Shown here: piece after piece, positions 14,090-61,581 of the stretch
Layout of the letters: the number at the start of each line of letters is the position of its first letter
Numbering within the stretch: the first letter of the stretch is position 1
Source of the DNA: Bacteroidota bacterium
Lineage (GTDB): Bacteria > Bacteroidota > Bacteroidia > NS11-12g > UBA9320
DNA: 64,000 nt
Assembly (NCBI GenBank): GCA_947468275.1
Contig: CANIKO010000002.1
Coordinates: 105,363 to 169,362, forward strand
Direction of reading: 5' to 3'
Position numbers and translations under genes: made by a program
Notes under the pieces: generated by a model
The model's input: only the letters and a program-made list of their open reading frames with translations
Told to the model about the DNA's origin: nothing
Databases searched by the model: none

Positions 14090-14166
<77 letters not shown>

Positions 14167-14325: not shown

Positions 14326-14637
14326 TTAAACTGAAAATTCTAGTGTCAATTTTCCGCCAAGGCCTTCGCGAATAATTCGCATTAAGGTTCTTAATCGAAT
14401 ATCACTGGCATCATTTTCAATTCTTGAAATATAATTCTTTGTTGTACCAATTCGTAAAGCAAGTTCCTCTTGGGTTAAATGCTGCTTTTTTCGCGCCTCT
14501 TGTATGAGCACTCCAATTTTAAATGCTTCAAATTCTTCAGCATATTTTTCACGAGTTGGTGTACCTTTCTTTCCATATTTAATGTCAAGATGATCATCCC
14601 AATTCACTAGTTTATTTTGTTCATTTACCTTAATCAT
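14326..14637 (-). CDS. higA: HigA-like XRE-family HTH antitoxin
   Basis: 103 aa; HTH LTQEELALRIGTTKNYISRIEN; immediately downstream of the toxin-like gene. Confidence 0.7.
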   Translation of the reverse strand: MIKVNEQNKLVNWDDHLDIKYGKKGTPTREKYAEEFEAFKIGVLIQEARKKQHLTQEELALRIGTTKNYISRIENDASDIRLRTLMRIIREGLGGKLTLEFSV

Positions 14638-14648
14638 AATCTTATTAT

Positions 14649-14999
14649 TTATAGTCCTTTTGTTTCAAAATACAGTTGTTTTAATTTTTCAGCTCTATCA
14701 ATTTCTTGTTTGGGAGTTTTGTTTGACTTCTTTTGAAATCCATTAAAAAGTATAACCAAATTTCCCTTATCAAAACAGCAAAAAACTCTAAAGATATCGC
14801 TACCTACTTTTATTCTAATCTCATAAAGTCCATCGGTTCCTTCAATGTGTTTGAAAAATTTTTCAGGAATAATTTGCAATGTTCTTACTAGTCCGATGAC
14901 CCAATCTATTTTCCCCTGAACTTCGCTAGTCTGCTTATGGTAGAATTCCCAAAAATAATTTCCAAAGACAATAGTGCCTCGCAGATAATTTTCATTCAC
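14649..14999 (-). CDS. higB: HigB-like (RelE/ParE superfamily) toxin
   Basis: 116 aa; Gp49/HigB-like pattern (GLYEIRIKVGSDIFRVFCCFDKGNLVILFNGFQKK...); toxin-first order with an 11-bp gap to the antitoxin. Confidence 0.65.
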   Translation of the reverse strand: MNENYLRGTIVFGNYFWEFYHKQTSEVQGKIDWVIGLVRTLQIIPEKFFKHIEGTDGLYEIRIKVGSDIFRVFCCFDKGNLVILFNGFQKKSNKTPKQEIDRAEKLKQLYFETKGL

Positions 15000-15346: not shown

Positions 15347-16387
15347 ATGATTCTACGAGCTTATTTAGTAACCTTATGTTTGTTTTTTTGTATTACAGCA
15401 TCACCCCAGGTGGTAAAACTTACACAAAAATTTGATAGTTCAAAAACCCCACCCCGGCCTGATTATAGCAAAAATGCATCTTGGGCCGCACTTCCGTTTA
15501 TAAAAGATGAGGCGGATACTACACCGGGCTTAGGAATTTATAAAGACTTGCAAAGCAACGCAATTGCAGATATTTTTTTTATTCATCCTACAACGTATAC
15601 TTATAAACCTTTATCACCCAACCAATGGAATGGGGATATTAATGATGTACAATTGAACCAAAAAACAAATTCAGGAACGATTCGTTATCAAGCCTCCTTG
15701 TTTAATGGTGCGGGAAAAATCTATGCCCCATATTACAGACAAGCTCATTATTATTCTTATGTAACGAGTGATACACTTAGTGCAAGATTAGCTTTGGATG
15801 TGGCTTATTCCGATGTAAAAAAAGCATTTGAATTTTATTTAAAAAACTATAATAATGGCCGGCCAATAATAATTGCATCTCATAGTCAAGGTACTACACA
15901 TGCCATAAGATTGATGAAAGATTATTTTGATACAACTTACTTAATAAACCAACTTGTTTGCGCATATTTGGTTGGTATGCCAGTATATGATTCTGTTTTC
16001 ATCAAACTTAAACCTTGCCAAAATGATAATCAAACAGGATGTTATTGCAGCTGGAGAACTTATGCAGTGGGCTATTACCCAAAAAAATACATTAAACCTG
16101 GAAAATTTTCTGTGTGTACGAATCCTCTTACTTGGAAAACCAACGAGACTTATGCCTCAGCTGAACTAAATAGTGGTGGAATATTGCGCAATATGAATAC
16201 GGTTATACCTAAATTGTGTGATGCACAAATAGCTGATGGGGTATTAAGGATACATAAACCCAATTTTAAAGGCAATATATTTTTGAATATTAAAAATTAT
16301 CACATAGCCGATTATAATCTTTTCTATTCCAACGTTAGAGAAAATGCTATATTAAGAAAAGACACTTTCATTAAAAATAAAAGTTAA
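15347..16387 (+). CDS. Secreted DUF3089-like alpha/beta-hydrolase (lipase-like) protein
   Basis: Signal peptide; IIIASHSQGTTH resembles the lipase nucleophile elbow (xHSQG). Confidence 0.45.
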   Translation: MILRAYLVTLCLFFCITASPQVVKLTQKFDSSKTPPRPDYSKNASWAALPFIKDEADTTPGLGIYKDLQSNAIADIFFIHPTTYTYKPLSPNQWNGDINDVQLNQKTNSGTIRYQASLFNGAGKIYAPYYRQAHYYSYVTSDTLSARLALDVAYSDVKKAFEFYLKNYNNGRPIIIASHSQGTTHAIRLMKDYFDTTYLINQLVCAYLVGMPVYDSVFIKLKPCQNDNQTGCYCSWRTYAVGYYPKKYIKPGKFSVCTNPLTWKTNETYASAELNSGGILRNMNTVIPKLCDAQIADGVLRIHKPNFKGNIFLNIKNYHIADYNLFYSNVRENAILRKDTFIKNKS

Positions 16388-16396
16388 TCGTAAATC

Positions 16397-16804
16397 CTAC
16401 GGTTTAATAATTCCTTTATCCTTCAAAAGTTGAACCAATTCCGTAATATTTAGTGGTTTTGTCAAAAAAGCTATTACGGAAGGATATTTTAAGACTTTTT
16501 CATTATCACTCATTAGTATACTAGAGGAAAGCATAATAATATTAGTTTTTTCACGATTTTCAATTGGAAGTGTATTATATAGTTCCAAAAACTCAAAACC
16601 ATCCATTATCGGCATATGGATGTCAAGTAATATTAAATTAGGCCAATCTGCAGCACTTGCACTATGAAGATATTGGAATGCTTCATGAGAATCTTCAAAT
16701 TTTGTTGTTTTATTGGCAAGCTTATGAGCCTCAATAAATTTTTTATTAAGAAATAAATCTATAACATTATCATCAATCAACATTATAGAAAGATTATTTA
16801 TCAT
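16397..16804 (-). CDS. Stand-alone response-regulator receiver (REC) protein
   Basis: 135 aa; LMIDDNVID...LLDIHMPIMDG...; no output domain. Confidence 0.8.
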   Translation of the reverse strand: MINNLSIMLIDDNVIDLFLNKKFIEAHKLANKTTKFEDSHEAFQYLHSASAADWPNLILLDIHMPIMDGFEFLELYNTLPIENREKTNIIMLSSSILMSDNEKVLKYPSVIAFLTKPLNITELVQLLKDKGIIKP

Positions 16805-17886
16805 GGATTAATTTTATTTGGAATTATTATTTCAAAAGTAGTACCAACATGAGGAGTTGAGGTCACGGATATCGTACCTCCTATTTTATCTAATGATTCT
16901 TTTACAATATATAAACCGATACCTGACCCTTGCTTATTATTTGAAATTTGTGCACGATAGAACATTTTAAATATATTAGGCAGATGTTCAGGATTAATAC
17001 CTATTCCGCTATCTATAATTTGCAAATTAACCGATTCATTTTCGCTAACTATTTTAACCGTTACGGTATGTTGCTCCGAACTAGGCTTTCGATACTTAAT
17101 GGCATTTGATATAATATTTATCAAGATAACTCTTAATCGAAATGAATCACCAATAAATTCGCCTTTTTGTTTAACATCAGTCACAAACTTTATGGAATGA
17201 TCCTGATTTTTAAGCATATCAATTATTTCATGCAAAAGTTCATTAAAATTTAAATTTTCCAGTGATTCATCTGACCTGGAATTCTGATAATAATCAATAA
17301 TATTCCGAATATATTTATCTAATTTAAGAACACTATTTTCAATAATATCAAAGTATTCCTGATCTAAACTATCATCCATTTTGGCAAGTTGTACTACACC
17401 TAATATTGACATAAGTGGAGAACGGAGGTCATGCGAAGCACTATAAATAAAACGATTTAGTTCATCGTTAGTTTTCAGTAATTCTGTATTTTTCAATTTC
17501 AATTCTACACGACTTTTATAAATGTCGCTGCAGTTTTCCATTATCAAATTCAACTTTTCCCAATCCCAAGGTTTTTGAACATATTTGTTTACTTGCCCTC
17601 TATTTATAGCATCTATAACAGAATCTAAGTCGGCATGACCAGTAATTAATAATCGAACCGCGTCAGGATATATATCAATTGTTTTTTCTAAAAACTCAAT
17701 ACCAGTCATTACCGGCATTTTCTGATCGGTAATAATTATATTAATTTCAATATCCTTAAGCAAGCCAAAGGCTTCTAGAGCACCTTTGGCTGTATAAATC
17801 TGATACTGTCTTTTAAAATAAGCCTGAAATGATATCAGATTATTTTCTTCATCATCTACGTATAATACTTTTAGTTTTTCTAACAT
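16801..17886 (-). CDS. Hybrid REC-histidine kinase (N-terminal receiver, then HisKA and HATPase_c)
   Basis: VLYVDDEENNLISF...ITDQKMPVMTG (REC); H-box SHDLRSPL; N/G boxes ...NAIKY..., DSGIGI, GSGIGL. Confidence 0.8.
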   Translation of the reverse strand: MLEKLKVLYVDDEENNLISFQAYFKRQYQIYTAKGALEAFGLLKDIEINIIITDQKMPVMTGIEFLEKTIDIYPDAVRLLITGHADLDSVIDAINRGQVNKYVQKPWDWEKLNLIMENCSDIYKSRVELKLKNTELLKTNDELNRFIYSASHDLRSPLMSILGVVQLAKMDDSLDQEYFDIIENSVLKLDKYIRNIIDYYQNSRSDESLENLNFNELLHEIIDMLKNQDHSIKFVTDVKQKGEFIGDSFRLRVILINIISNAIKYRKPSSEQHTVTVKIVSENESVNLQIIDSGIGINPEHLPNIFKMFYRAQISNNKQGSGIGLYIVKESLDKIGGTISVTSTPHVGTTFEIIIPNKINP

Positions 17887-17897
17887 CTATTTTAATT

Positions 17898-20063
17898 TTA
17901 AGACAGAATAATATGAAGATTCATTGGCAATATTATTGTGATTTTAGTGCCAATTCCTGGTTCACTCATTATATCAATTTTTCCATGATGACTTTCCATT
18001 ATTCCAAATACAATCGACATTCCTAATCCTGTTCCTTCTCCAACATCTTTTGTAGTAAAAAATGGTTCAAATATCTTAGCCTGCACTTCTAGTGTCATCC
18101 CAGGTCCAGTATCTTCTACCGACACGCAAATAGTTTCATCTTTTACAAAACTAGAGATCGTAAGCCTGTGTTTTTCTTTTGTAGTGTCTTTATCCATGGC
18201 TTGAATTGCATTATTTATGATATTCATAAATACCTGATTTAACTTACCAGGATAGCATTCAATTTTAGGAATTTCTCCAAAGTGTTTAACAATCTCAATA
18301 TTAGGAGGTGTTATGCTTTTTAATAACACCATAGTAGACTCAATTCCTTGGTTTATATCAGCGAGTTTAATATCACTTGCATCCAAATGTGCAAAATTCT
18401 TTAGTCCTTTTACTATTTCGGCTGTTCTTTTAGCCCCATCTTCAATACCTGCGAGTAATGAATTAATTTCTTTTTTAACATAATCGATATCGATCTCTTT
18501 TTTGAATGATTCAATAGAAGTTAATTTTTCAGCTAAATTATCTTCAATGTTGATAGCTTCATATTTAGATAGAACTTCAAAAATATCAGCGATATCTAAT
18601 TGAAGTGGCTTAACATTGGCACTAACAAAGTTAATAGGATTATTAATTTCGTGCGCAATACCAGCCGTTAGCTGACCAAGAGATGCCATTTTCTCAACAG
18701 ACACTAATTGAGACTGTGCTTCCTTTAAATCAGTGATAGCTACTCCTAATTCATTGTTTTTAACTTCTAATTCCTCGGTTCGAACTAATACTTTTTGTTC
18801 TAATACAATATTTTGTTCTTTAATTAGTTTTTCATTTTCTTCTAAAGCCATTACTACCTCTGCCTGAGATAACTCTTTATCTTTTTTCAAGATATTAATA
18901 CGATCAGCAAGGGCAAATGACAGCAAAATAACCTCAATACCAGAACCAAACTGCATGGTATAGCGTGTTATATTATTATATGGCAAAATATGAAGATCTT
19001 TTAAAACAAATATTATAACTCCCGCCAAAAAAACAGACCATCCAATTAAAAAGAATCGTGCTTCTTGATTTCCTTGCCTGTATATTACTATACCAACAAT
19101 TAACATGAAGATGGAAACAGAAGAAGCTGTTATTGACATCAGTTTATAACTTAAACCATATTGCCCAGTGAAACTCATAAATATGGCAATTAGATATAAA
19201 ATTGTAAACAGAAAGGAGGAGTTGTAAACTTTTAAATTTCGGTTTTTTAGTTTTAAAAAATCTTTAAAAAACTCTAAACCGGCAATGCCTGCCAAAGAAG
19301 GAAAAAGAAATTGACTATGTATTTGTAACCAAGGTAAATTGGGCCAAATAAACTGAAATGGCAGCCCCATATTACTCGTTTGGGCTAACAATACGAATAC
19401 AATGTAAAATGAGTATACCAAATAGCTTTTTTCTCTAACGGCCCCGAAAATGAATAGGTTATACAGCAACATCACAATCATGATACCTATATAAATCCCC
19501 ACCGCAATATTTTTATATCCTGAAAATTCAAAAGTTGACTTGCTAGAGCCCATAAAAATTGGGAGCTGTAATATTTCCTTGGAAGTAATTTTTAAATAAT
19601 ATGTTTTCTCAGAACCATTTTCAATATTTATATCAAATAAATAATCAGGGGTAGAATATTGCCGCAATTTGAAAGACTGATATTCTCCCATTGAACTTGC
19701 GCAGTATTTATTAGTTTTTAAATCATTAAAATAAAATGTAACCTTATCTAAAATTGGCTGATTAACTTGTATAATAAGGTTATTTTCAGTCGAAATATTC
19801 TTAATTGTAATTCGAACCCAAAACGTAGAGGTTGACATTCCTAAATCTGGTACATCCTTTTCACTTCTCTTGAAATTTTTTGATTTTAAAATTTCGTCTA
19901 TGGTTAAATTATTGGTTTTATCTTCTAACAGATAAATATTTTTACCAATTTGTAAATTTCGAGTTGCATCGGAATAAATAACTTGTGCAAATAAGTTATT
20001 TGAAAGTCCAACTAATATCAATAAAACGACTAAAATACTTGAATATTTATTTTTTTCAATCAT
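17898..20063 (-). CDS. 7TMR-DISM sensor histidine kinase (periplasmic DISMED2-like domain, 7TM, HisKA, HATPase_c)
   Basis: Signal peptide, ~170-aa extracytoplasmic domain, seven predicted TM helices, coiled coil, H-box AHEINNPINF, ATPase motifs NAIQAM, DTGPGM, GTGLGM. Confidence 0.85.
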   Translation of the reverse strand: MIEKNKYSSILVVLLILVGLSNNLFAQVIYSDATRNLQIGKNIYLLEDKTNNLTIDEILKSKNFKRSEKDVPDLGMSTSTFWVRITIKNISTENNLIIQVNQPILDKVTFYFNDLKTNKYCASSMGEYQSFKLRQYSTPDYLFDINIENGSEKTYYLKITSKEILQLPIFMGSSKSTFEFSGYKNIAVGIYIGIMIVMLLYNLFIFGAVREKSYLVYSFYIVFVLLAQTSNMGLPFQFIWPNLPWLQIHSQFLFPSLAGIAGLEFFKDFLKLKNRNLKVYNSSFLFTILYLIAIFMSFTGQYGLSYKLMSITASSVSIFMLIVGIVIYRQGNQEARFFLIGWSVFLAGVIIFVLKDLHILPYNNITRYTMQFGSGIEVILLSFALADRINILKKDKELSQAEVVMALEENEKLIKEQNIVLEQKVLVRTEELEVKNNELGVAITDLKEAQSQLVSVEKMASLGQLTAGIAHEINNPINFVSANVKPLQLDIADIFEVLSKYEAINIEDNLAEKLTSIESFKKEIDIDYVKKEINSLLAGIEDGAKRTAEIVKGLKNFAHLDASDIKLADINQGIESTMVLLKSITPPNIEIVKHFGEIPKIECYPGKLNQVFMNIINNAIQAMDKDTTKEKHRLTISSFVKDETICVSVEDTGPGMTLEVQAKIFEPFFTTKDVGEGTGLGMSIVFGIMESHHGKIDIMSEPGIGTKITIILPMNLHIILS

Positions 20064-20766
20064 TCGATTTTATTTTATAAATCAAGTCATATTCAACCTC
20101 TACCTCGGTTTCTAAATAGATTTCAGTGGTTGTCTGAACTGGAATATCCCTCAATGACAACATCCGATTTTTATCATATTCATTTGCACTGGCAAGCGTT
20201 TCTGCATTCATTATACCTAATACTCTGGTAATATAATTATCATTAGGATAAGGGTATTCCCCCTTTAGCCCAAGATTAGGATTGACAATAAAACCTACCC
20301 GTTTAAACATCTCCATGGTGTATTCGGCACAAATGCCCATAAGGGTTTCAAACTTTAATTGATTGGTAGTTGATATCCCAGCCCTTGTCAACAATACACT
20401 TATTCCTATACCCGCTACTTTCTTAGAATTCCATAATCCACAAAGTTCGCCAATGCCACCATTTACTCTAAAATTTTTCACAATATCAAAAATAATGGGA
20501 TCCATCTTACCAATAGCTTTCTCTATTGGTAGATAGTTGTTTTCATCAGATATTTGAGCTCTAATGCCACCCACTATTTCACCAGTAGATTTAACTTCAG
20601 CTACAACACCATAGATGTTAGGATTTATCATCCATTCATTGTTATTGGTAGAGATATTAGTAACATTATAATCTTTCAAAACAGACACATGTCCTTCGAT
20701 ATACCTCATACAGGTATCTGGCTCATCCACAGCCCTAAAGGCCCTAAAAATTAATTTTTCATTCAT
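20056..20766 (-). CDS. Hypothetical protein with GNAT-acyltransferase-like motifs
   Basis: 236 aa; KKVAGIGISVLLTRAGI (motif-A-like) and YTMEMFKRVGFIV (motif-B-like Y..F.K.GF). Translationally coupled to both neighbours. Fold assignment is by eye only. Confidence 0.35.
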   Translation of the reverse strand: MNEKLIFRAFRAVDEPDTCMRYIEGHVSVLKDYNVTNISTNNNEWMINPNIYGVVAEVKSTGEIVGGIRAQISDENNYLPIEKAIGKMDPIIFDIVKNFRVNGGIGELCGLWNSKKVAGIGISVLLTRAGISTTNQLKFETLMGICAEYTMEMFKRVGFIVNPNLGLKGEYPYPNDNYITRVLGIMNAETLASANEYDKNRMLSLRDIPVQTTTEIYLETEVEVEYDLIYKIKSND

Positions 20767-23068
20767 TATTCCACTTGTAAAATGCCGCCTCCAATGGTCT
20801 TCTTACCGACTTTATTTTGGGAGTATCAGCCTTAGTTAATCTAAAAATCATTATATCACCGTTTCCAGGTGTTAATTTTAATATTTCTTCAAATTTAGGC
20901 CTTATGGCCCATAATTTTTTTTGCCCTTTCTCACTTATATTTTCTCCTTTTCCAAGCATTAATCGATTGTAAACAAACAACGATGCCGTAATCGGTTGAA
21001 ATGCCAAATCAATTAAATTTGCTTTTAACCAAACGCGTTCAATAATCCGACCTCCATTAAAATAATCGGTAAGACTTTGACCTGACATAGAAAGGATACC
21101 TACAGCGCCAGCAGAATCAACTAACTTTTTCGTTAATTTATTAAACGCTGCCCCGCCATTCCATTCATTTAATAATTCTATGACTCCAGCATTTTGAGCT
21201 ATTTTCAATCCCGCTTTTTCTGGATTGGTTAATTCCACAGTCCGAATATCCACACCATCTCGTCGCTGGTCATTTTCCTCTTTCGTCCATCTCATTTCAT
21301 CTGAAAAATCTGCTTGCCCTGCTTTTTCCAAAAGTCTAATAATTTCAAGTTCTCCAAGAATTTCACCAATATTAAATAAGTCTTCATCACTCGTAAAAAA
21401 ACGAAGATTGGCACCTTCCATCTCGTTGGCCACACTTATTAATTCTTGTAATTTTTCACTTTCTATATTTGGCCGCTTTACTATATTTCTATTTGTATGT
21501 CGAATCTCAATGGCCTCGGCTAAATTAAGAAGTTTAGGATCGGTTGCTTTTTCGGGAAAAAACTTCACTTGGGCAACCAATTGTTTAATATTTTTATCTG
21601 GAAATACTTCGATTTTTGAATCCAAATGCAATTGTTTGGCCTTAAGTACAGCATTTTCAATAGCCGAACCAAGTGCAAGGCAAGCTGAAACATTTCCGTA
21701 ACCTAAAAACACCTCACTTCCTTCTAGAGCATAATAAGCCAATAATGTATTATTCTTCAATGCAAATTTCCAAGGCTGATAATTGCCTCCTGAAGGCGCA
21801 AGAATTGCGGCCTTAACAATTTGACTAACTTCTGAATCACTCAATGAGGCCTGTCCACTTTCTAATTCAATATTAATATTGTTTGTAATGCCTACAACAT
21901 CGGTATACTCATAAGGATCAACCCAAACATAAGGTTCCATTTCAGGCTTTTTATCCCCAATTAGCTCTTCTATATCAATATGGTAACGTCCTGATTCAGA
22001 GAATTGTTTCAATAAAATTCGCCGACTAACATCGGCTGTAATGCCCCCTCCCATTGCTACTGAACTGGCTAATTGTGGCCATGTATTAATGGATTGCTCA
22101 ATTTCCAACATCGATGCCTTAATTCGCAGCGAAGAGGTTTCTAAACCTAAGATATCTAAAATATATGGAAACTTTTCTTCATTAGTTTTTAAATTTTTAA
22201 GGGTATCCAAATCAAGATGATCAACCAATCCGTGCAATACACTGCGATTAGGCTCTAAATCAAATCGTTCAACATCTACCATACAACGATCACTGGTCTC
22301 CATAATTACAGCTATTCCAAGCTCTCTTGCCTTATAACGACTTAATATTTTTATTTCAAAACCATCCGATTCCTCAATCAGTAAATCAAGCTTTCCTCCA
22401 TCGAGAAAAAAGGATTCCATATTTGACTCTTGAAGTCCTTCTAAAAAACAACTCACCTTTATAAAAGGATCAATTTCGGCAATTTCTCTTGCCACAACAT
22501 TTACCTTATAGGTACCTAGGTTATGAATGCCTGTTCGTATTCTATTATAATTAGTGAGCTCTAAAATATCAAAATCGGCTAATCTAATTTCGCTGCAACT
22601 TCTTTCCATTGCAATGGTTATCGCTACCGATTGGCCAACAGAAAGGCCCACGACCCCTATTATTTTTTTTCTTAGTATTTCGCGTTCTTCTTTGGTTATT
22701 TTATATTGGTTTCTGTTGGTTCTAATCTCAATAAATTCCTCTTCATCTGGTATATGAACCAATCTGTTGGACCAAGGATAATACACCCACACCCCGTATT
22801 CTTCTATTGATAATGGTTCAATATGTTTATAGGTTGCTTCAATTAATTCGTCATCAGTGAATTTTTTAGATGGATATTTTATTTTAATTAATTGCTTAAC
22901 TTGATCAAATAAAAAATCACAAACAATTATTCCAGGAGTCAATAATAATTGCTCAAGGTTTTCCTTTTGTTTTAAATCTCCAATTCGGTAAAACAAAGGT
23001 TTTACCAATAAATCGTTTTTAATCTGTTCTTGTCTGTTCTTTAATAGTATATCGCTCAATCGTGTCAT
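20759..23068 (-). CDS. E1-like (ThiF/MoeB-family) domain fused to tandem nitroreductase-family domains
   Basis: 769 aa; IIGVVGLSVGQSVAITIA...IRLADFDILELTNYNRI aligns to the MoeB motif in this same window (GAGGLGCP...VDFDVVDLTNLHRQ). Downstream is ILAPSGGNYQPWKF, a nitroreductase FMN motif, plus a second nitroreductase-like half. Confidence 0.7.
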   Translation of the reverse strand: MTRLSDILLKNRQEQIKNDLLVKPLFYRIGDLKQKENLEQLLLTPGIIVCDFLFDQVKQLIKIKYPSKKFTDDELIEATYKHIEPLSIEEYGVWVYYPWSNRLVHIPDEEEFIEIRTNRNQYKITKEEREILRKKIIGVVGLSVGQSVAITIAMERSCSEIRLADFDILELTNYNRIRTGIHNLGTYKVNVVAREIAEIDPFIKVSCFLEGLQESNMESFFLDGGKLDLLIEESDGFEIKILSRYKARELGIAVIMETSDRCMVDVERFDLEPNRSVLHGLVDHLDLDTLKNLKTNEEKFPYILDILGLETSSLRIKASMLEIEQSINTWPQLASSVAMGGGITADVSRRILLKQFSESGRYHIDIEELIGDKKPEMEPYVWVDPYEYTDVVGITNNINIELESGQASLSDSEVSQIVKAAILAPSGGNYQPWKFALKNNTLLAYYALEGSEVFLGYGNVSACLALGSAIENAVLKAKQLHLDSKIEVFPDKNIKQLVAQVKFFPEKATDPKLLNLAEAIEIRHTNRNIVKRPNIESEKLQELISVANEMEGANLRFFTSDEDLFNIGEILGELEIIRLLEKAGQADFSDEMRWTKEENDQRRDGVDIRTVELTNPEKAGLKIAQNAGVIELLNEWNGGAAFNKLTKKLVDSAGAVGILSMSGQSLTDYFNGGRIIERVWLKANLIDLAFQPITASLFVYNRLMLGKGENISEKGQKKLWAIRPKFEEILKLTPGNGDIMIFRLTKADTPKIKSVRRPLEAAFYKWNNE

Positions 23069-23322
23069 AAACCTAATTAATTATAGTAGAATTTCGGGCA
23101 AATAAAATACCTATAATCCACATTTAATCAACCATTAATATGAGTGTGACCAATAAAATTGAAAATAACTTTTTAATACATTTTTGTAACATTTTTTTGT
23201 TGCAAAACATTTTTTATAATTATATTTGAATTATGATATTTGTTTTTAAATAGAAATATCAATATAAACATTATATAAAATGATACTATTGGTAAAATTT
23301 TATATAAATAAAAAAAGAAAAA

Positions 23323-23790
23323 TTGGAAGAAAATCAGAAAATTCACGTCTTATATGTAGATGACGAAGAAAACAATTTAATTGCTTTCAAGGCATCATTT
23401 AGACGTGATTTTACAATATTTACTGCTATTTCTGCATTGGAAGCTAAAGAAATATTGGCCAAAAATGAGATCCATATTCTTATTACCGATCAAAGAATGC
23501 CTGTAACCACTGGTTCGGAACTTTTGGCGCAAGCCGTTAAAGATTACCCTGATCAGATAAGAATACTTCTTACCGGTTTTTCAGACATGGAAGCATTAAA
23601 GGATGCCATTAACTTAGGACAAATTTATTGCTATTTACAAAAACCATGGAATGACGAGGAGCTTAAAACTACAATAAACAAAGCCTTTGAAATTTACCGC
23701 ACAAAACGCGAAAAAGATGAATTAACAGGGACATTAAAAACTTCGAATGAACAACTTGAATTTTATTTAAGGCAAAAACTTTTGTCTTAA
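23323..23790 (+). CDS. Stand-alone REC protein, paralog of the REC domain in the hybrid kinase
   Basis: 155 aa; HVLYVDDEENNLIAF...ITDQRMPVTTG...YLQKPW, about half identical to the N-terminus of 16801..17886. Confidence 0.8.
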   Translation: MEENQKIHVLYVDDEENNLIAFKASFRRDFTIFTAISALEAKEILAKNEIHILITDQRMPVTTGSELLAQAVKDYPDQIRILLTGFSDMEALKDAINLGQIYCYLQKPWNDEELKTTINKAFEIYRTKREKDELTGTLKTSNEQLEFYLRQKLLS

Positions 23791-23791: not shown

Positions 23792-25087
23792 TTATCTCGA
23801 ATTTCGATAAAATTCATTAATCAATATAACCGACTCATTTAGCTCTTCTTTATTAGTATCAGGCAAAGATTGCATCTTGGTATAGTTGAATAATATCTTA
23901 TCTATTTTTTCTAATGAAACCTTGCTTAAGTAAGCTAATTTCGTTTTATCTTCGGTATTATTATTCTTTAAATTAATACCAAATTTTGTTCTTATAAAAT
24001 TGAAAAAATAACGAAATTTTTGCTCTGCTATGTTTTTGTGATTACCATCGGCCAAGTATAACTTTGTGATGGTTTGAGCAAATTCAATTGAAGTATTCTT
24101 GTTTTTTCCAATAACCAAAATTGACCTTTGTTTTCGTTTAAAACTAAATATACTGAACAAAATAATAGCTCCTAAAAAACTATACCATGCATACTGGAAT
24201 GAACGAAACGAAAGCAAAACCTCAAATGGACTTTCATTAGTTTTTGCTTCATTATCTATTACCCCTTCACTTGCAAAAGTATTGACATGCCAGTAGATAT
24301 TTCCAGGTTCAAGATGTAAAAACACCTTTTGAGCATATATAAAAACATCTTTTTTGCGAAGATAATAATTAGTAAAAACTAATGGTGAGGCATATAAATG
24401 CAACCACCCTTCGCCCACCTTTATTTTGATATAATTGGTATATTTTTCATGATCTGATAATTCAAGATTGCCAATTTTATAATAATCATAGTCTAAATTA
24501 TTCAATGATTGGTTTTCAAAAAATTCTTCAGAAAAATAACCCGCTTGCATTGGAATATAAGTTTGAAGATACTTAAGTTTAATAATAGGCGTGTCATTAA
24601 GTTTAAGTCCAGGATGCAACAATTGCAATTTGTATTGCATGCATTGAATTTGTGATAAAGCATTAGCCGAACTATTTACCGATTTTAATTCAGGCCGAAG
24701 CATACTATCCAAAAAATACTCAGATACTTCGTTTGATGCGATAAAAACCTGATTACCTTTTCTAATGAAATCATATAATGACGAAACGGTTGATTGATCA
24801 GGGACAAAACTGTATCCACTATAAAAATAGATATTATTCTTGCTCTTAAGAGTATTAAAATCGCTATTGTATCTTAGGGGTTCTTCTATTTTTATAAAGT
24901 CCTTTTCAGGATATAGACTCTTTGTAAGTTTAAATAACAACTCATTTCCATAGGGTGAACCACTGGATTGATTATAATTTTGACTCCAATTATAAGTAGG
25001 ACTTTTACTGTACAGATAATAAAAAAAAGCAGCTAAGCAAATCAATACAGAGAAAGCAATAAGAATGGGCCATTTTTTTTTAAACAT
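23792..25087 (-). CDS. Hypothetical membrane-anchored protein (DUF4350-like architecture)
   Basis: N-terminal TM, large soluble region, C-terminal TM (WYSFLGAIILFSIFSF); family call is from memory of architecture only. Confidence 0.3.
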   Translation of the reverse strand: MFKKKWPILIAFSVLICLAAFFYYLYSKSPTYNWSQNYNQSSGSPYGNELLFKLTKSLYPEKDFIKIEEPLRYNSDFNTLKSKNNIYFYSGYSFVPDQSTVSSLYDFIRKGNQVFIASNEVSEYFLDSMLRPELKSVNSSANALSQIQCMQYKLQLLHPGLKLNDTPIIKLKYLQTYIPMQAGYFSEEFFENQSLNNLDYDYYKIGNLELSDHEKYTNYIKIKVGEGWLHLYASPLVFTNYYLRKKDVFIYAQKVFLHLEPGNIYWHVNTFASEGVIDNEAKTNESPFEVLLSFRSFQYAWYSFLGAIILFSIFSFKRKQRSILVIGKNKNTSIEFAQTITKLYLADGNHKNIAEQKFRYFFNFIRTKFGINLKNNNTEDKTKLAYLSKVSLEKIDKILFNYTKMQSLPDTNKEELNESVILINEFYRNSR

Positions 25088-25790
25088 ACTGATTGGTATC
25101 TAATACTAAAAAAGCTTGTTTAAAAAGTTTATCAATCGACTGATAATGAAACTCATCTATCAAACTATCGCCATACCATACTGATTCATAAATTAGTGCT
25201 AACTGCCTAAAATACCAGTGTATTTCACTCCCCAAAATCTGCTGAGTATAGTCCCTATTCGTACTTTCTCGCTTCCATTTTATATATTTTTTTTGGTTTA
25301 ATAATTGAAGGAACGTTAAAAAATTTAATCGTGTGGCCAATCTATAATCTCCATTTTTTAAAGCTCCAATTAATAATTGGTCAATTTCAAGGTCGTTTAT
25401 ATCTTCAGGTTCATTTAGGATATCAAAGTTTACCGATTTTTTTTGAAGAGACTTATTGCCCAAAAAACCATTGCGAACTAATAAGTAAACAACTAAAGCT
25501 ATTAATAAAAAAATCAGGAGGTATGCCACTAAACTCAAAAATGCAGAACTGCCTGAGAAAAAAGGTTTTCCAAGATTTGGAGTCCTACTTTTTGTTTTAT
25601 TTAATTTTGGCGTTTTATATTTATAATCCTCTTTTAGTTTTTCCCAACGCTTGTTATCCAAGCTATTTCCACCTGGTTTACTTTGCAAATAATCGTTAGT
25701 AACATCGGCTGAATAACCTTGATTGAATGATAAGATAAATATTAAAACAAGGTTCCACCTTAAATTTAAAAGATTATTTAATGCCTGCAT
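25080..25790 (-). CDS. Hypothetical single-pass membrane protein (DUF4129-like architecture)
   Basis: Signal/TM, central TM (LVAYLLIFLLIALVVYLLV), C-terminal soluble domain. Confidence 0.3.
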   Translation of the reverse strand: MQALNNLLNLRWNLVLIFILSFNQGYSADVTNDYLQSKPGGNSLDNKRWEKLKEDYKYKTPKLNKTKSRTPNLGKPFFSGSSAFLSLVAYLLIFLLIALVVYLLVRNGFLGNKSLQKKSVNFDILNEPEDINDLEIDQLLIGALKNGDYRLATRLNFLTFLQLLNQKKYIKWKRESTNRDYTQQILGSEIHWYFRQLALIYESVWYGDSLIDEFHYQSIDKLFKQAFLVLDTNQYV

Positions 25791-25811
25791 TCAGTAATTA
25801 TAATTTAATCC

Positions 25812-27635
25812 TTATTTTGACCATACTTTTTCTAAGCGGGCTTTTAAGCCACTGCCGGTTATTTTTTCTTTTGCACTAAAATAATGCAATGTATTACCAA
25901 ATAAATACAAGGGCAACATTACAAAAAGCAGCGCCATACCAACAATTAAAACAGCCAATTTCTCTAATTCATTTATCATCGGACCTGACAATTTCAATCC
26001 GTTACTTATGGCTTCGATAATAAAATTAAGAATGGGAGATGAAACAGAAAGATAAAAAATAAACAATAGAATGAGTAGGGTTAAATTGAGAACGGCATTT
26101 GCTAAAATTGTTTTAAAGAAATTTTTTATTCCAGGAATAATACCAAATAATCCAGCATTAAATATTCCCGAATTCATAGAAATACAAAGCGGGAAGATTA
26201 CAAAAAAATATAAGATAAAGTAAAAAATTCCATCACAATAAAAATAAGAGCCCAGTGTTAAAAACATGAAATACCAGGAACCTATAAATCGAATTAATTT
26301 ACTCCTGGAGGATAAATAATTCTTACTCTGTTTGAAAAAAAAATAACCTTGAAACAAAACCGGAAACATTGAAAACAGAACCACAAAAACTGGCCAGATC
26401 TTGTAATATCCATCTCTAAACCATACGTTTATTTTTAAAAGTTTTATTATTTCAAAAATATTATCGGGCACCCCAAAAAACTGATATTCCAAATGCCGCG
26501 ATTGAGAAAAATAAAGTGCAATAATCATTACAGTGCTTAGTAATAAAGAGGATTTAATTATTACTCCAATATACCTCTTCCACACTCTAAATGTATCCGC
26601 AACCACTTCCCCGGCAGTTTTAATATCATCCAATACAATTTCATAAGGGGGATTAGGGGGCAACTCATTTTCTTCAATCAGATGCCCGGCTTTGCTAAAC
26701 TTATACCATGGCAGCCAAACAAAATAAAACAATATAAAAAAAAGTGAGCTTATAATTAATAAAGCTTTTAGATAAAGCGGGGCGTTGGATTGACCTGTAA
26801 TAAATGCTTCGATAAATGCGGCAGTAAGGGTTAGCGGGATTACTGTAAAAAGAATTTTGATACCCTTGATGGCTGAAATACGGAAAGCTTGGCCTCGCGA
26901 ATAAGTGCCGGGAAAAAGTAAACCTTTGCCAAATATCAAACCTGCTGTGGCCGATAATATCATGGTAAATATTTCTAATGTGCCATGCAGCCATATCGTT
27001 AATACTGTAAATGTGAAATAACCTGTTCCATAAAAAAAATACTGAAACACTCCTACCATCACTCCGTTGTAGGCCAAAACAAACAAGGTGCCTATGGCAA
27101 AAAACAAACCAGTTACAAAAGTTAGCATATCCACCCGCAGGTTATTGTAGGCAATTCGAAAGAATGAGGAAAGTTTATCCCCTTCGGCATACACATTCAT
27201 AGGTTTTCCTTCTTTAATATTTTGGTTGGTCATTTCTACATATTGGTCGCCCAATATTTGGCGGGCAAACCCCGGCTGATGCCTGCTACTAAACACTCCT
27301 ACTATAAATGTGAGAACAAATACAAAAAAACAAACTAGCAACTCCTTGCGGGCCGAATACATAATGGCGGGAAATTCTTCTTTAAAAAATTTGCTTAAAA
27401 ACGATTGTTTTCGTTTTCTATTGGTATAAAGCTTTAAAAAAACCTGTTGTGCCAATCCGTTTAAATACACCCTTACCGAGCGGTTGGGATAAAAAGACCG
27501 TGAATAAGAAAGGTCATCGGTTACTTGAATAAATAAATCATTGAGTTCATCAGGCTGTGTTGATTTACCTTTCAACACCGTTTCATAATGTTTCCAATTT
27601 TCTTTGTTTTGGTTTATGAAGGATGATTCTTTCAA
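25812..27635 (-). CDS. Stage II sporulation protein M-like (DUF95) polytopic membrane protein with extended C-terminal membrane domain
   Basis: 607 aa; N-terminal half resembles SpoIIM/DUF95 (VLAYNGVMVGVF..., IFTMILSATAGL, AAFIEAF); the C-terminal half adds ~6 more TM helices. Confidence 0.4.
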   Translation of the reverse strand: MKESSFINQNKENWKHYETVLKGKSTQPDELNDLFIQVTDDLSYSRSFYPNRSVRVYLNGLAQQVFLKLYTNRKRKQSFLSKFFKEEFPAIMYSARKELLVCFFVFVLTFIVGVFSSRHQPGFARQILGDQYVEMTNQNIKEGKPMNVYAEGDKLSSFFRIAYNNLRVDMLTFVTGLFFAIGTLFVLAYNGVMVGVFQYFFYGTGYFTFTVLTIWLHGTLEIFTMILSATAGLIFGKGLLFPGTYSRGQAFRISAIKGIKILFTVIPLTLTAAFIEAFITGQSNAPLYLKALLIISSLFFILFYFVWLPWYKFSKAGHLIEENELPPNPPYEIVLDDIKTAGEVVADTFRVWKRYIGVIIKSSLLLSTVMIIALYFSQSRHLEYQFFGVPDNIFEIIKLLKINVWFRDGYYKIWPVFVVLFSMFPVLFQGYFFFKQSKNYLSSRSKLIRFIGSWYFMFLTLGSYFYCDGIFYFILYFFVIFPLCISMNSGIFNAGLFGIIPGIKNFFKTILANAVLNLTLLILLFIFYLSVSSPILNFIIEAISNGLKLSGPMINELEKLAVLIVGMALLFVMLPLYLFGNTLHYFSAKEKITGSGLKARLEKVWSK

Positions 27636-47873: not shown

Positions 47874-49619
47874 ATGCATAAAACAAAGCACCCGATTTTT
47901 CTTCTGTTTTTTTCTAGTCTTCTTATTTTATTATCAAGCAGTCAAAGCAAGGCACAATACAACACCCTATGGATACCCGACACGCTTTCGGGGACCAATT
48001 TTAACCTGAATATCAAAGATACCTTCGCGCAAATTGTGAGCAAGGGAAACCAAACTATTACCGGAGGTATAAACGGTAAATTCTGGGGTCCGACCTTGTT
48101 CATTAAAAAAGGAGATGTGGTGCATATGAATGTTAAAAATAATCTGAATGATTCCACAACACTTCACTGGCATGGTATGCACCTGCCTGCAGTAATGGAT
48201 GGAGGTCCGCACCAGATCATTCCACCCGGCACTCTTTGGCAACCTTACTGGAAAGTGACGAACAACGCTGCAACCTATTGGTACCATCCCCATTTACACG
48301 AAATGACCATGGATCAGATCACCAAGGGATTAGGAGGATTGATTATTGTGAGAGACAGCATAGAATCTGCTTTGGCCCTGCCAAGAAAGTACGGTGTGGA
48401 CGATATTCCATTGGTATTAACGGATCGTGACTTTAACACTTCCAATCAATTTGTGGCGGTGCCTTATGGCGACAGTATGATGGTAAACGGAACGCTTCGT
48501 CCTGAGTTCTCTATTCCCGCACAGGTGGTGAGATTCAGAATTCTGAATGCCGCTATTGAACGTTCCTATAATCTTGGTTTCAGCGATAACAGGGCCTTTC
48601 TTATCATAACTTCCGACGGTGGACTATTAAATGCTCCGGTTTCTGTGACTAGATATTTATTGCATGCAGGCGAACGCATTGAAATTCTGGTCAATTGCGT
48701 TTCACAATCGGGCACTTCACTGGATTTAAAAGCCTACAATTCCACCTTGGGCAATTTTGTTGCCGGAGGCGAAGCCTTTGTCAATGGCCCCTTTGCCAAT
48801 GCATTAGGCAAAAAAGATTTTAATATTCTGCATTTAAAAATAGGTGCGATAACCGGTTCGCCAATTACAAACATACCAAGCACCCTGACCAATAATAAAA
48901 CCCTTAATGCGGCTGATGCAGTTGTTACAAGAAAAGTGACCATCAGTGACAGCGCAGGTGTTAAAGTCCCTACGATTCTCGGTCCTAATGCATTTATAAT
49001 TAACCATAAACTATTTAAGTTGGATAGAAACGAATATAATGTCCCATTGAACAATACCGAAATTTGGGAAATTACAAGTACATCCGTTTTCGGGCATCCT
49101 TTTCACATTCACGATGTGGAGTTTAATATTTTAACTGTGAACGGTGTAGCTCCGGCAGCAGCCCAAGCAGGATGGAAAGACGTGGTTTTTGTTCCTGGGA
49201 AAACAGGAACAACCCCTTCCGTTGTGAAATTCATCGCAAAATTTGATGACTATGCGGATGCCTCTCACCCGTTTATGTTCCATTGTCATATTTCATTGCA
49301 TGAAGACGAAGGTATGATGGGTCAGTTTTTAGTTACTAATTCCTCCACAGGAGTAAAAGCGCTTCAAAAATCAGAACATGCATTTATTGTTTACCCAAAT
49401 CCGGCGAACAATAAATTATATTTCCAGTTTAATAATCAAGAAATGAAAGCATATTATGTCAGGATTATTAATGAATTAGGTAAAACTATTATAATGCTCC
49501 CAAGTCCTGAGTTGGAAAAAGGAATTGATGTCAGCAGCATTGCGGCAGGTATTTATTTGATTCAGTTAACCGAATTTGGAACCAAAATATTAATAACACA
49601 AAAGTTTATTAAAGAATGA
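47874..49619 (+). CDS. Multicopper oxidase with T9SS C-terminal sorting domain
   Basis: HWHGMHLP, WYHPHLHEMT, HPFHIHDVEF, HCHISLHEDEGMMGQF give the four Cu-binding His motifs; CTD tail IVYPNPANNKLYFQF...GIYLIQL. Confidence 0.8.
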   Translation: MHKTKHPIFLLFFSSLLILLSSSQSKAQYNTLWIPDTLSGTNFNLNIKDTFAQIVSKGNQTITGGINGKFWGPTLFIKKGDVVHMNVKNNLNDSTTLHWHGMHLPAVMDGGPHQIIPPGTLWQPYWKVTNNAATYWYHPHLHEMTMDQITKGLGGLIIVRDSIESALALPRKYGVDDIPLVLTDRDFNTSNQFVAVPYGDSMMVNGTLRPEFSIPAQVVRFRILNAAIERSYNLGFSDNRAFLIITSDGGLLNAPVSVTRYLLHAGERIEILVNCVSQSGTSLDLKAYNSTLGNFVAGGEAFVNGPFANALGKKDFNILHLKIGAITGSPITNIPSTLTNNKTLNAADAVVTRKVTISDSAGVKVPTILGPNAFIINHKLFKLDRNEYNVPLNNTEIWEITSTSVFGHPFHIHDVEFNILTVNGVAPAAAQAGWKDVVFVPGKTGTTPSVVKFIAKFDDYADASHPFMFHCHISLHEDEGMMGQFLVTNSSTGVKALQKSEHAFIVYPNPANNKLYFQFNNQEMKAYYVRIINELGKTIIMLPSPELEKGIDVSSIAAGIYLIQLTEFGTKILITQKFIKE

Positions 49620-51199: not shown

Positions 51200-51200
51200 C

Positions 51201-52562: not shown

Positions 52563-52587
52563 TTGAATGTAATATTGATAATCAACG

Positions 52588-53070
52588 ATGAATAAAACGG
52601 CTATTAGGATAATGGTTTTTGCTATAAGCCTTTTATTTAACAATGTTGCTTTTTCTCAAAATATTTCTACAATTAGATTTGAGACTCTCCAGCAGCGGAT
52701 TACCTCAAATCCTGATACCGTTTATGTCGTTAATTTCTTTGCATCGTGGTGTGCACCCTGCATTCAAGAAATTCCTGATTTTTTGAAGTATGCTGAAGAT
52801 AATAAGAATGAGAAAGTAAGGGTGATTTTTGTGAGTCTGGATTTTAAAAAAAACATGTATGAGAGTTTGTTACCTCTGATTCAGAAATTAAATATCAATC
52901 AAACGGTTTATTTATTGGATGAACCGGACGCCAATCAATGGATAGACAAAATTGACAATACCTGGAGTGGTGTAATTCCGGCCACCCTGATACTTCATAA
53001 ATCTTCTGATTATAGAAAGTTTATACCGGCCCCCCTTACTTATAGTTTATTAAAGAAGTTTACAAAATGA
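52588..53070 (+). CDS. TlpA/ResA-like thiol-disulfide oxidoreductase
   Basis: FFASWCAPCIQEIP (WCxPC) in a thioredoxin fold; signal peptide. Confidence 0.7.
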   Translation: MNKTAIRIMVFAISLLFNNVAFSQNISTIRFETLQQRITSNPDTVYVVNFFASWCAPCIQEIPDFLKYAEDNKNEKVRVIFVSLDFKKNMYESLLPLIQKLNINQTVYLLDEPDANQWIDKIDNTWSGVIPATLILHKSSDYRKFIPAPLTYSLLKKFTK

Positions 53071-53678: not shown

Positions 53679-53749
53679 AAATCGCTTAATTCAGGAATAA
53701 TTAAGAAATTTGTTTTGTCTATGCTTTAAAACAATTCTATTGATATGCA

Positions 53750-53755
53750 GTTAAC
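53750..53755 (+). promoter_or_regulatory. GTTAAC element 39 nt upstream of the ECF sigma-2 start (paired with 44779..44784)
   Basis: Same motif and spacing as upstream of sigma-1. Confidence 0.3.
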
Positions 53756-53788
53756 GGTTTATTCTTATACATTTGGGTTCACTTTCTG

Positions 53789-54701: not shown

Positions 54702-54704
54702 ATC

Positions 54705-55202: not shown

Positions 55203-55282
55203 TATTATTAAACAGTGCCAGAAACTAAATTTTTTATCGTCTTTAACATTAAATCATACATTATCAGAATTTTTTAAAAAAT

Positions 55283-56950: not shown

Positions 56951-56959
56951 ATCTCATCG

Positions 56960-58675: not shown

Positions 58676-58703
58676 ATAATTATTGATAAAATTTGAAATG
58701 CCC

Positions 58704-60326: not shown

Positions 60327-60335
60327 TCAAACAAA

Positions 60336-61568: not shown

Positions 61569-61581
61569 TCGGAATGAAATC

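Follow-up and report, generated by a model that had tools for sequence, protein, structure and literature searches.

A Putative Oxazolone Synthetase Pair Linked to a Dedicated 7TMR-DISM Phosphorelay in Bacteroidota, With a Candidate Hypervariable Enzyme/Sensor Cassette

Introduction

N-acyl oxazolones are made by the oxazolone synthetase OxzAB of Pseudoalteromonas rubra (de Rond et al., bioRxiv 10.1101/2020.06.11.147165) and by TyzACB of Mycobacterium tuberculosis (PMC10404671). In the related TrzA/TrzS pathway, TrzA (Rv1356c) N-acylates tryptophan, and TrzS (Rv1355c) uses its ThiF domain for ATP-dependent cyclization and its flavin oxidase for O2-dependent desaturation to give an N-acyl tryptazolone (PMC12856293, December 2025). 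The same enzyme triad leads to N-acyl-2,3-dehydrotyrosines in three other phyla (PMC12479983), and published surveys of such enzymes cover the Proteobacteria, Actinomycetota, and Planctomycetota. De Rond et al. call the role of the oxazolones "unclear," and PMC12856293 terms it "a major unresolved question"; the adjacency of cyclic di-GMP (c-di-GMP) genes serves as a loose pointer, and a signaling role has already been suspected by the authors of published work. Here we analyze a locus in which relatives of these enzymes are encoded next to a sensor histidine kinase and its receivers. It lies in a 64,000-nucleotide stretch of the genome of a Bacteroidota bacterium (GenBank assembly GCA_947468275.1, contig CANIKO010000002.1, positions 105,363 to 169,362), which as a whole we refer to as the window.

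The locus consists of five packed minus-strand genes, for a ThiF–flavin oxidase fusion, an acyltransferase, a 7TMR-DISM sensor kinase, a hybrid of receiver and histidine kinase (REC-HK), and a stand-alone receiver of 135 residues (REC135), and of a divergent gene for a receiver of 155 residues (REC155). An earlier reading of the window, made from the sequence alone, had drawn attention to these genes, and our check of the open reading frames (ORFs) reproduced the coordinates, strands, and lengths of all six exactly (Table 1). We propose that they form a conserved module that couples an oxazolone synthetase pair to a dedicated phosphorelay, most likely as a quorum-sensing-type circuit of self-made signal and receptor, a chain of reasoning that, taken from end to end, we regard as evenly poised between right and wrong.

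Results

The Synthetase and the Acyltransferase

The 769-residue protein scored 757.5 bits with the NCBIfam equivalog model NF005901 (Rv1355c family), for which the cutoff is 476, and its residues 18–762 aligned with model positions 7–717 of 722. Pfam located a ThiF domain (PF00899) at residues 123–270, and the model NF047509 for Acg-type flavin mononucleotide (FMN) oxidoreductases matched residues 417–697 (E 9e-33). The AlphaFold2 model of the protein had predicted local distance difference test (pLDDT) values of 79.5 overall and 85–97 in the C-terminal half, and its best PDB fold match by Foldseek was 2YMV, an Acg homolog of M. smegmatis (E 2.5e-13, template modeling (TM) score 0.80, 377 columns), which confirmed, at the level of the predicted structure, that the C-terminal half has a tandem-nitroreductase fold. 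The sequence-only reading had called one ThiF and two nitroreductase-like domains; the ThiF domain and the tandem fold were thereby upheld, and the two Pfam copies of PF00881 that it anticipated were reduced to a single short stretch.

Identity to actinobacterial proteins of the Rv1355c family was 31–34% over 85–94% of the 769-residue length. Alignment revealed no change between Bacteroidota and Actinobacteria at the ThiF ATP-site residues G141, G145, D165, D167, R176, K188, and D235, and none between the window protein, other Bacteroidota, and Actinobacteria at residues P425, N429, Q431, W433, R523, R527, R578, and R593 of the flavin-dependent oxidase (FDO). By equivalence at the motif level, D235 would occupy the position of the D127 type in ThiF and be the counterpart of Asp217 of M. 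smegmatis TrzS, which has been mutated. As judged from these alignments, the 769-residue protein is a full-length member of the Rv1355c/TrzS/OxzB-type oxazolone synthetase family. The view that fusions of this kind have no assigned product is accordingly out of date, as OxzAB, TyzACB, and TrzS all make N-acyl oxazolones.

Other fold matches of the ThiF part were to ThiF, PaaA, MoeB, Uba4, and MccB. The second-best fold match for the ThiF domain was PDB entry 9EGB, a 2025 structure of AclA, a ThiF-type protein of another member of the Bacteroidota (Tenacibaculum discolor), with its substrate; a literature search on AclA returned nothing relevant, and AclA could be a relative among the E1-like enzymes that act on small molecules. 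Assignment of the locus to a known anti-phage defense system (of the type of Cap2 in cyclic-oligonucleotide-based anti-phage signaling systems, CBASS) was considered and rejected: PADLOC reported generic E1-core similarity of 16–30 bits to E1-E2 models, and the other module proteins had no PADLOC match, save for a generic HATPase match of REC-HK. A 158-residue ORF antisense to the ThiF-FDO gene (21225–21701, plus strand) was likewise discarded as a gene, being a shadow ORF whose counterparts recur across loci merely from conservation of the underlying gene.

The 236-residue protein belongs to a well-conserved family that is labeled "hypothetical" everywhere, and for the window protein there was no Pfam match even at E <= 10, no NCBIfam match, and no useful PDB match by sequence. 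Its AlphaFold2 model (pLDDT 88, predicted TM score 0.88) had as its top PDB fold the N-acyl amino acid synthase FeeM (2G0B; E 6e-9, target TM score 0.75), followed by the coenzyme A (CoA)-dependent acyl-homoserine lactone (AHL) synthases BjaI and MesI, so that the predicted structure is a FeeM/AHL-synthase-like three-layer alpha/beta/alpha fold. FeeM and BjaI were also reported in 2023 as the closest structures of TyzA (PMC10404671). When a profile of the Bacteroidota family was compared by hhalign with one of actinobacterial TrzA (Rv1356c), the two aligned over 165 columns (probability 94.8%, E 4.9e-8), and a GGxRxQ motif, two glutamates, and a YP..Y motif, each invariant in both families, lined up. 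That the actinobacterial profile does represent TrzA was verified by synteny of the rv1357c-rv1356c-rv1355c type (EAL/242 residues/715-residue ThiF protein) in M. haemophilum. An exhaustive profile search gathered 598 clusters in the acyltransferase family, and it was distant members of the family, not the window protein, that showed weak matches to PF21926 (FeeM) or PF00583. Profile comparison and predicted fold together indicate that the 236-residue protein is remotely homologous to TrzA and adopts the FeeM/AHL-synthase fold. It had been described as GNAT-like, which appears true of the modeled fold alone (by its likeness to FeeM and BjaI); the Pfam GNAT-clan match expected with that description was absent.

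The Sensor Kinase and the Receivers

The Pfam results agreed with the sequence-only assignments of a 7TMR-DISM kinase, a hybrid of receiver and kinase, and a stand-alone receiver. In the 721-residue kinase a signal sequence or first transmembrane segment is followed by a periplasmic DISMED2 domain (PF07696, E 8e-30), a seven-transmembrane (7TM) block (PF07695, 7TMR-DISM_7TM, E 1e-53), and the dimerization and histidine phosphotransfer (HisKA-like) and catalytic (PF02518, E 3e-24) domains; the H-box AHEINNP is at residue 470, and N, G1, and G2 boxes are present. The family alignment had 33 near-invariant positions in the 7TM block vs. 6 in DISMED2.

REC-HK contains PF00072, PF00512, and PF02518, with acidic residues DD at 11–12, the aspartate within ITDQKMP at 52, and the H-box SHDLRSP at residue 151. 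Both stand-alone receivers matched PF00072 with E 9e-15; the acceptor motifs are present in REC135, and REC155 has DD at 13–14, ITDQRMP at 54, LLTGF at 82, and LQKPW at 105. REC155 is 47% identical to the receiver of REC-HK (residues 3–160, E 1e-44) and has no significant BLASTP similarity to REC135. In terms of sequence, then, REC155 is a paralog of the REC-HK receiver and not of REC135.

Conservation of the Module Across Bacteroidota

A scan of one genome per species identified the acyltransferase family in 199 species, and gene neighborhoods were examined in the best 80 loci, which came from Pedobacter, Cytophagaceae, Chitinophagaceae, Cryomorphaceae, Vicingaceae, Sporocytophaga, and many metagenome-assembled genomes (MAGs) of Bacteroidia. 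Cultured isolates with the enzyme genes include Pedobacter steynii DSM 19110, P. duraquae DSM 19034, P. panaciterrae LMG 23400, and P. quisquiliarum CGMCC 1.15343. The counts below refer to loci with enough flanking sequence to be testable, copies of the window itself being left out. A gene for a 7TMR-DISM kinase lay directly downstream of the acyltransferase gene and on the same strand in all 76 of 76 loci (one of them, in which the two genes overlap by 2 nucleotides, was scored by hand), and the co-occurrence of the enzyme pair with such a kinase that the sequence-only reading proposed to look for across Bacteroidota was thus found. The full ThiF-FDO gene was directly upstream of the acyltransferase gene in 63/73 loci; in the other ten the upstream position was E1-only, meaning the ThiF/E1-like part (E1) without the oxidase (4), truncated or frameshifted (2), or behind a second acyltransferase copy (2), or the gene was 3.6 kb away (1) or absent (1). 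Divergent REC155 was present upstream in 62/69 loci, REC-HK downstream in 47/68 (it has moved upstream in a few and is absent in about 19), and REC135 in 45/65, never without REC-HK.

The module is spread over the Sphingobacteriales, Cytophagales, Chitinophagales, and Flavobacteriales, with flanking genes that differ by taxon, and the kinase gene still adjoins the acyltransferase gene in distant members whose acyltransferases are only about 30% identical. When all ORFs of 83 loci were clustered, the six module genes were the only recurring families around the locus, and no conserved transporter, DNA-binding regulator, small gene, YcaO, or protease was found among them. Dozens of genomes have the arrangement between flanking genes that differ, which puts it far beyond chance, and the data support the view that enzymes and two-component proteins are encoded in one dedicated, conserved unit. 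That enzymes and kinase are functionally coupled in some way is a conclusion of which we are very confident.

A Variable Cassette Within a Conserved Frame

Comparison of syntenic pairs of loci exposed a mosaic: flanks, REC155, E1, kinase core, and REC-HK were 75–98% identical, and FDO, acyltransferase, and sensor were down to 26–57% identity at the protein level and about 50–58% at the nucleotide level. For the pair L010/L082 the protein identities were REC155 96%, E1 77%, FDO 33%, acyltransferase 57%, DISMED2 35%, 7TM 47%, kinase core 90%, and REC-HK 98%; for L057/L080, from two Pedobacter species, they were REC155 95%, E1 94%, FDO 52%, acyltransferase 84%, DISMED2 45%, 7TM 64%, kinase core 93%, and REC-HK 93%. 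Overall, FDO identity was 33–52% where kinase cores were 89–93% identical. In sliding windows along L010/L082, nucleotide identity was 72–90% in the flanks and outer parts of the module and about 48–58% from the middle of the ThiF-FDO gene to the end of the 7TM block, with the acyltransferase gene at 58–66%. In L057/L080 there were separate dips at the FDO and at the sensor, with the acyltransferase between them near background, and in two further pairs the dip was chiefly in the FDO (L004/L018) or chiefly in the sensor (L001/L034). We infer that FDO, acyltransferase, and sensor make up a hypervariable cassette inside a conserved frame.

The variable parts also tend to change together. In partial Mantel tests that controlled for kinase-core and E1 identity, the acyltransferase correlated with the 7TM block (partial r 0.60) and with DISMED2 (partial r 0.47; p <= 0.0005 for both); the values were 0.25 for FDO with 7TM, 0.16 for acyltransferase with FDO, and 0.05–0.10 for the controls (REC155, REC-HK, or REC135 with 7TM). 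Pure linkage is disfavored as the source of this signal, because the correlation of the acyltransferase with the 7TM block exceeds those with DISMED2 and FDO, both of which are encoded nearer to the acyltransferase gene. The nearest neighbor of the 7TM block was shared with the FDO in 37/56 loci, with the acyltransferase in 35/56, and with the protein's own kinase core in 27/56, and in nine of nine clearly incongruent loci the acyltransferase and FDO tracked the sensor. More than one sensor type occurred in 4 of 10 kinase-core lineages, cultured Pedobacter isolates among them; in one Pedobacter lineage of 11 loci, some of them from cultured isolates, four 7TM types are nested in two acyltransferase types. 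Such co-diversification of enzymes and sensor suggests, as far as sequence comparison can, a self-made signal and its receptor.

Variant Loci and Fusions

Four loci (L021, L045, L063, and L076) have E1 without an FDO, none being encoded within 10 kb; two (L024 and L043) have ThiF-FDO with two acyltransferase genes; and in L015 (9288–10693) E1-FDO is missing and the acyltransferase gene is present as a tandem pair, with kinase and receivers kept. Acyltransferase and kinase are the constant pair, because these variants retain both. By their gene content the variants should give different products, namely plain N-acyl amino acids, saturated oxazolones, or mixtures.

Fusions occur among more distant members of the acyltransferase family. 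P0479 (L090:6409-8307) is a 632-residue protein in which the N-terminal and ThiF-like parts of a synthetase are fused, without an FDO, to an acyltransferase domain, and it is, on the strength of its domain composition, a Rosetta-stone link between the two enzymes. There are also a TIR–acyltransferase fusion of 570 residues (P0456, L091:269-1981), a leucine-rich-repeat–acyltransferase fusion of 662 residues (P0445), and a tandem acyltransferase-acyltransferase fusion (P0366); the composition of the TIR and leucine-rich-repeat proteins hints that N-acyl amino acid synthesis may also be wired into other signaling or conflict systems. In Actinobacteria, genes of the Rv1355c family adjoin those of c-di-GMP enzymes, namely an EAL protein in M. 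haemophilum (L089:4711-9911) and a GGDEF protein on a Rhodococcus qingshengii plasmid (L088:2910-7058). On the plasmid the TrzA-like gene has a divergent orientation in place of a same-strand upstream position. This link of the enzyme pair to second-messenger genes parallels the kinase link described here.

Locus Layout and Surroundings

TABLE 1. Positions of the module genes, their domains, and neighboring features in the window.
Feature	Positions	Strand	Basis or remark
ThiF–flavin oxidase fusion of the Rv1355c/TrzS/OxzB type, 769 residues	20759-23068	-	ORF and NF005901
Predicted acyltransferase, N-acyl amino acid synthase-like, counterpart of TrzA/TyzA/OxzA, 236 residues	20056-20766	-	Fold and profile homology
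7TMR-DISM sensor histidine kinase, 721 residues	17898-20063	-	Pfam domains
REC-HisKA-HATPase hybrid (REC-HK), 361 residues	16801-17886	-	Pfam domains; second kinase, gated by its own receiver
Stand-alone receiver REC135, 135 residues, last gene of the operon	16397-16804	-	PF00072
Stand-alone receiver REC155, 155 residues, C-terminal helical tail, divergent	23323-23790	+	PF00072
Divergent intergenic region, AT-rich, 254 bp	23069-23322		Presumed site of the promoters of both units
ThiF/E1-like adenylating (cyclase) domain, residues ~123-380	21929-22702	-	PF00899
Acg-type flavin-dependent oxidase (FDO), tandem nitroreductase fold, residues ~405-769	20762-21856	-	NF047509, fold
Putative specificity cassette: FDO, acyltransferase, and kinase sensor (DISMED2 and 7TM)	18900-21856	-	Homologous loci, projected onto the window by domain boundaries
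DUF3089 gene, alpha/beta-hydrolase-like	15347-16387	+	Convergent on the operon end, 9 nucleotides between stop codons
Toxin-antitoxin-like pair: 116-residue Gp49/HigB-type (PF05973), then 103-residue HTH_3/HTH_19	14326-14999	-	Domains
tRNA gene, adjoining the toxin-antitoxin-like pair	14090-14163	+	Rfam
Trio of membrane-protein genes that overlap or adjoin: DUF4350-like (431 residues), DUF4129 (236 residues), SpoIIM-like (607 residues)	23792-27635	-	Just beyond REC155

The genes for the 769- and 236-residue proteins overlap by 8 nucleotides (ATGAATGA), as do those for the 236- and 721-residue proteins (ATGATTGA); an 11-nucleotide gap separates the kinase gene from that of REC-HK, which overlaps the REC135 gene by 4 nucleotides (ATGA). 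The overlapping stop and start codons at these junctions indicate translational coupling. The operon is bounded upstream by divergent REC155 and downstream by the convergent DUF3089 gene. The region between the operon and REC155, which its position leads us to presume holds the promoters, has a single motif of the Bacteroidota -7 type (TAnnTTTG), which is at 23221 on the plus strand; the minus strand has none. A scan for sigma-70 promoters and terminators, a method ill-suited to Bacteroidota, returned sites no more frequently than in shuffled sequence. A six-frame check of the same intergenic region detected no ORF for a precursor peptide, and it encodes none because stop codons crowd all six frames. 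An Rfam scan found nothing inside the locus.

The DUF3089 gene was considered as a signal hydrolase of the module and rejected, as it is not conserved beside other loci. Nor are the three membrane-protein genes beyond REC155 conserved beside the module in other genomes. Toward the end of the window (48001–64000) the G+C content climbs from about 0.30–0.35 to 0.39–0.43; the Rfam scan had no match in that part, to rRNA or to any other family.

Discussion

From their homologies, the two enzymes would act in three steps. The 236-residue synthase would N-acylate an amino acid with an acyl group from acyl-CoA (possibly from acyl carrier protein); the ThiF-like domain would adenylate the carboxylate, upon which the amide oxygen would close a 5(4H)-oxazolone ring; and the fused FMN oxidase would desaturate the bond between C-alpha and C-beta with O2. 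The resulting N-acyl oxazolone would be a labile, lipid-like compound that hydrolyzes to an N-acyl dehydro-amino acid. This enzymology, in which an N-acyl amino acid is converted to an oxazolone or dehydro-amino acid, seems to us a sound deduction that is likely to hold. Linkage and co-diversification extend the scheme to the kinase, which we infer senses the product, its precursor, or its hydrolysis product, probably in or at the 7TM block, as this block is better conserved than DISMED2 and has the strongest co-variation with the acyltransferase. Going by domain content, the kinase would then phosphorylate REC155 and the receiver of REC-HK, and REC-HK would in turn phosphorylate REC135. Because no DNA-binding domain is encoded in the module, the single-domain receivers would pass the output on by contact with other proteins. 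With their different cassette types, related strains would have signal "dialects" of their own.

The sequence-only reading held that the locus both makes and senses a small molecule, and the pherotype-like co-diversification of enzymes and sensor supports this, with sensing of the product by the kinase as the part that is deduced. The fullest form of the idea, a polymorphic small-molecule communication system of Bacteroidota, with an oxazolone or dehydro-amino acid autoinducer, a 7TM receptor, and exchangeable cassettes that keep dialects private as a lipid counterpart of peptide pherotypes, we put forward tentatively and a little short of even confidence.

Several findings weigh against a self-signal circuit. 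The FDO correlated with the sensor at partial r 0.15–0.25, which is not above the control of REC-HK with FDO (0.19), and since the parts concerned adjoin one another on the DNA, joint replacement by recombination may account for some of their co-variation. No extra sensor divergence was seen in loci whose enzyme set is altered (E1-only, acyltransferase-only, or duplicated acyltransferase; all |z| < 1.6). The absence of REC-HK and REC135 from about 19 of 68 loci means that the core comprises part of the cascade only, and the module has neither a conserved transporter for export nor a DNA-binding output for a response. The association with a kinase is not universal: no kinase is encoded near the E1-acyltransferase fusion of L090 or, on a short contig, near the TIR fusion P0456, and proteobacterial oxzAB operons have no reported kinase (bioRxiv 10.1101/2020.06.11.147165). 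Finally, tryptazolones are mainly cell-associated (PMC12856293), and oxazolones added to producer bacteria elicited no obvious phenotype (bioRxiv 10.1101/2020.06.11.147165).

The main alternative is that the lipid is the output of the cascade, the kinase sensing an external or envelope cue (e.g., via DISMED2) and the receivers switching the enzymes, whose product would serve as a stress protectant, surfactant, or antimicrobial. Since no DNA-binding regulator is present, the receivers must act on proteins, of which the co-encoded enzymes are the nearest candidates. Antibiotics induce oxazolone production in Proteobacteria, the tyz locus is tied to oxidative stress, N-acyl tyrosines of the stieleriacine type have antimicrobial or biofilm-shaping activity, and an output role would suit both the mainly intracellular location of tryptazolones and the lack of a conserved transporter. 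However, control of the enzymes by the kinase does not predict that the sensor co-diversifies with acyltransferase and FDO while kinase core and receivers stay conserved. It would also leave the conserved E1 as the sole regulatory contact, yet L015, which lacks E1-FDO, keeps the kinase and receivers. We consider this alternative unlikely, if worth serious attention.

A second alternative is that the lipid alters a property of the membrane or envelope that the 7TM kinase monitors, so that the coupling would be indirect and serve homeostatic feedback and not communication between cells. The conservation of the 7TM block, which is the highest within the sensor (33 near-invariant positions vs. 6 in DISMED2), would fit such a role, as would the amphiphilic and cell-associated nature of the products and the fact that other N-acyl amino acid membrane lipids are made by Bacteroidota. 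But a generic sensor of membrane state should not need many divergent alleles that track those of the acyltransferase, and we regard this explanation as improbable.

Modification of a peptide or protein, with the E1-like domain activating the C-terminus of a ribosomal peptide or ubiquitin-like protein (as in the MccB, PaaA, thiazole/oxazole-modified microcin, or ThiS types) and the nitroreductase acting as a dehydrogenase, has in its favor that E1 folds related to MccB and PaaA are among the structural neighbors and that McbC-type dehydrogenases have a nitroreductase fold. A peptide product had been one suggestion of the sequence-only reading; we now hold it to be most improbable, given the lack of a precursor ORF in the intergenic region and of any conserved small gene, YcaO, protease, transporter, or other conserved gene in the 83 loci, the full-length match to the small-molecule TrzS/OxzB family, and a partner that is homologous to N-acyl amino acid synthases. 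Incidental linkage of a biosynthetic pair to an unrelated two-component system, which the lack of kinases in the oxzAB operons of Proteobacteria and beside some distant members of the family might suggest, has virtually no likelihood left, as it is refuted by the neighborhood counts: adjacency in 76/76 loci across four orders with unrelated flanks, with start/stop overlaps, and kept at 30% acyltransferase identity.

A self-made signal read by its own kinase therefore remains the reading that we favor, and the enzyme pair on which it builds is a new member, from a fourth phylum, of a known kind. What appears to be new is the kinase coupling together with the hypervariable cassette. The sequence-only reading knew of no description of a kinase-coupled arrangement, and we too found no prior description of it, or of the cassette, in the searched literature, which was thin on subscription journals, so that an earlier mention is possible. 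The coupling offers a sharper handle on the role of oxazolones than does adjacency to c-di-GMP genes, and it does so in about 200 Bacteroidota species, cultured and tractable Pedobacter included. If the self-signal circuit is real, it would provide the first physiological function for oxazolones and the first ligand class for the 7TM domains of 7TMR-DISM proteins; we know of no ligand that has been identified for any 7TMR-DISM 7TM block. It would also be the first dedicated synthase/receptor quorum-sensing system of Bacteroidota, a phylum for which, to our knowledge, no cognate synthase/receptor communication system has been described, and it bears on whether pherotype-like diversification occurs for non-peptide signals. 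Should the kinase instead control the enzymes, the module would represent the first regulatory circuit for this class of lipids.

Comparison With Known Systems

Among the oxazolone enzymes, OxzAB and TyzACB comprise the same three activities that sequence predicts for the module, i.e., N-acyltransferase, ThiF-like cyclase, and nitroreductase-fold desaturase. OxzAB is a stand-alone two-gene operon, surveyed in Proteobacteria only (56 proteins), whereas the pair described here is coupled to a kinase, and TyzACB has ThiF and FDO on separate proteins, which are fused here. The dehydrotyrosine clusters (PMC12479983) share the triad, and there the isolated end product can be a ring-opened N-acyl dehydro-amino acid that is active on other bacteria; unlike the module, they carry extra tailoring genes, such as those for methyltransferases, and no linked sensor kinase has been described for them. 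TrzAS (M. tuberculosis, M. smegmatis, and Rhodococcus jostii RHA1; PMC12856293) resembles the module in its ThiF-FDO fusion, its conserved residues, and its profile-homologous acyltransferase partner. The two are also alike in having adjoining signaling genes, which encode c-di-GMP enzymes (GGDEF/EAL) in Actinobacteria and a 7TMR-DISM phosphorelay here. They differ in sequence (the 31–34% identity noted above), in gene order, which is reversed here (synthetase before acyltransferase), and in the hypervariability of FDO and acyltransferase between close relatives that the module displays.

On the receptor side, RetS and LadS of Pseudomonas have the same architecture of DISMED2, 7TM block, and kinase. 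Their known or proposed cues (calcium and carbohydrates) act on DISMED2, and we know of no linked synthase for either protein.

The mosaic anatomy of the module is shared with comQXP of Bacillus and agrBDC of Staphylococcus, in which the processing enzyme and the N-terminal sensor are hypervariable and co-vary, and the C-terminal part of the kinase and the response regulator are conserved. The signals of those systems are ribosomal peptides, whereas the putative signal here is a small lipid, and the polymorphism described here is between species and MAGs. In LuxM/LuxN, CqsA/CqsS, and LqsA/LqsS/LqsR, a synthase gene adjoins that of a multi-pass membrane histidine kinase, whose transmembrane region detects an acyl-chain signal and which feeds a phosphorelay; LqsR has no DNA-binding domain, in which it is like the receivers of the module. 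The enzymes and chemistry of those systems are unrelated to those considered here, and the putative receptor of the module is a 7TMR-DISM protein with an added periplasmic DISMED2. Signaling cassettes of a synthase and a sensor kinase are thus known in bacteria, and what the Bacteroidota module adds to them is a new chemistry and a new type of receptor, both as predicted from its genes.

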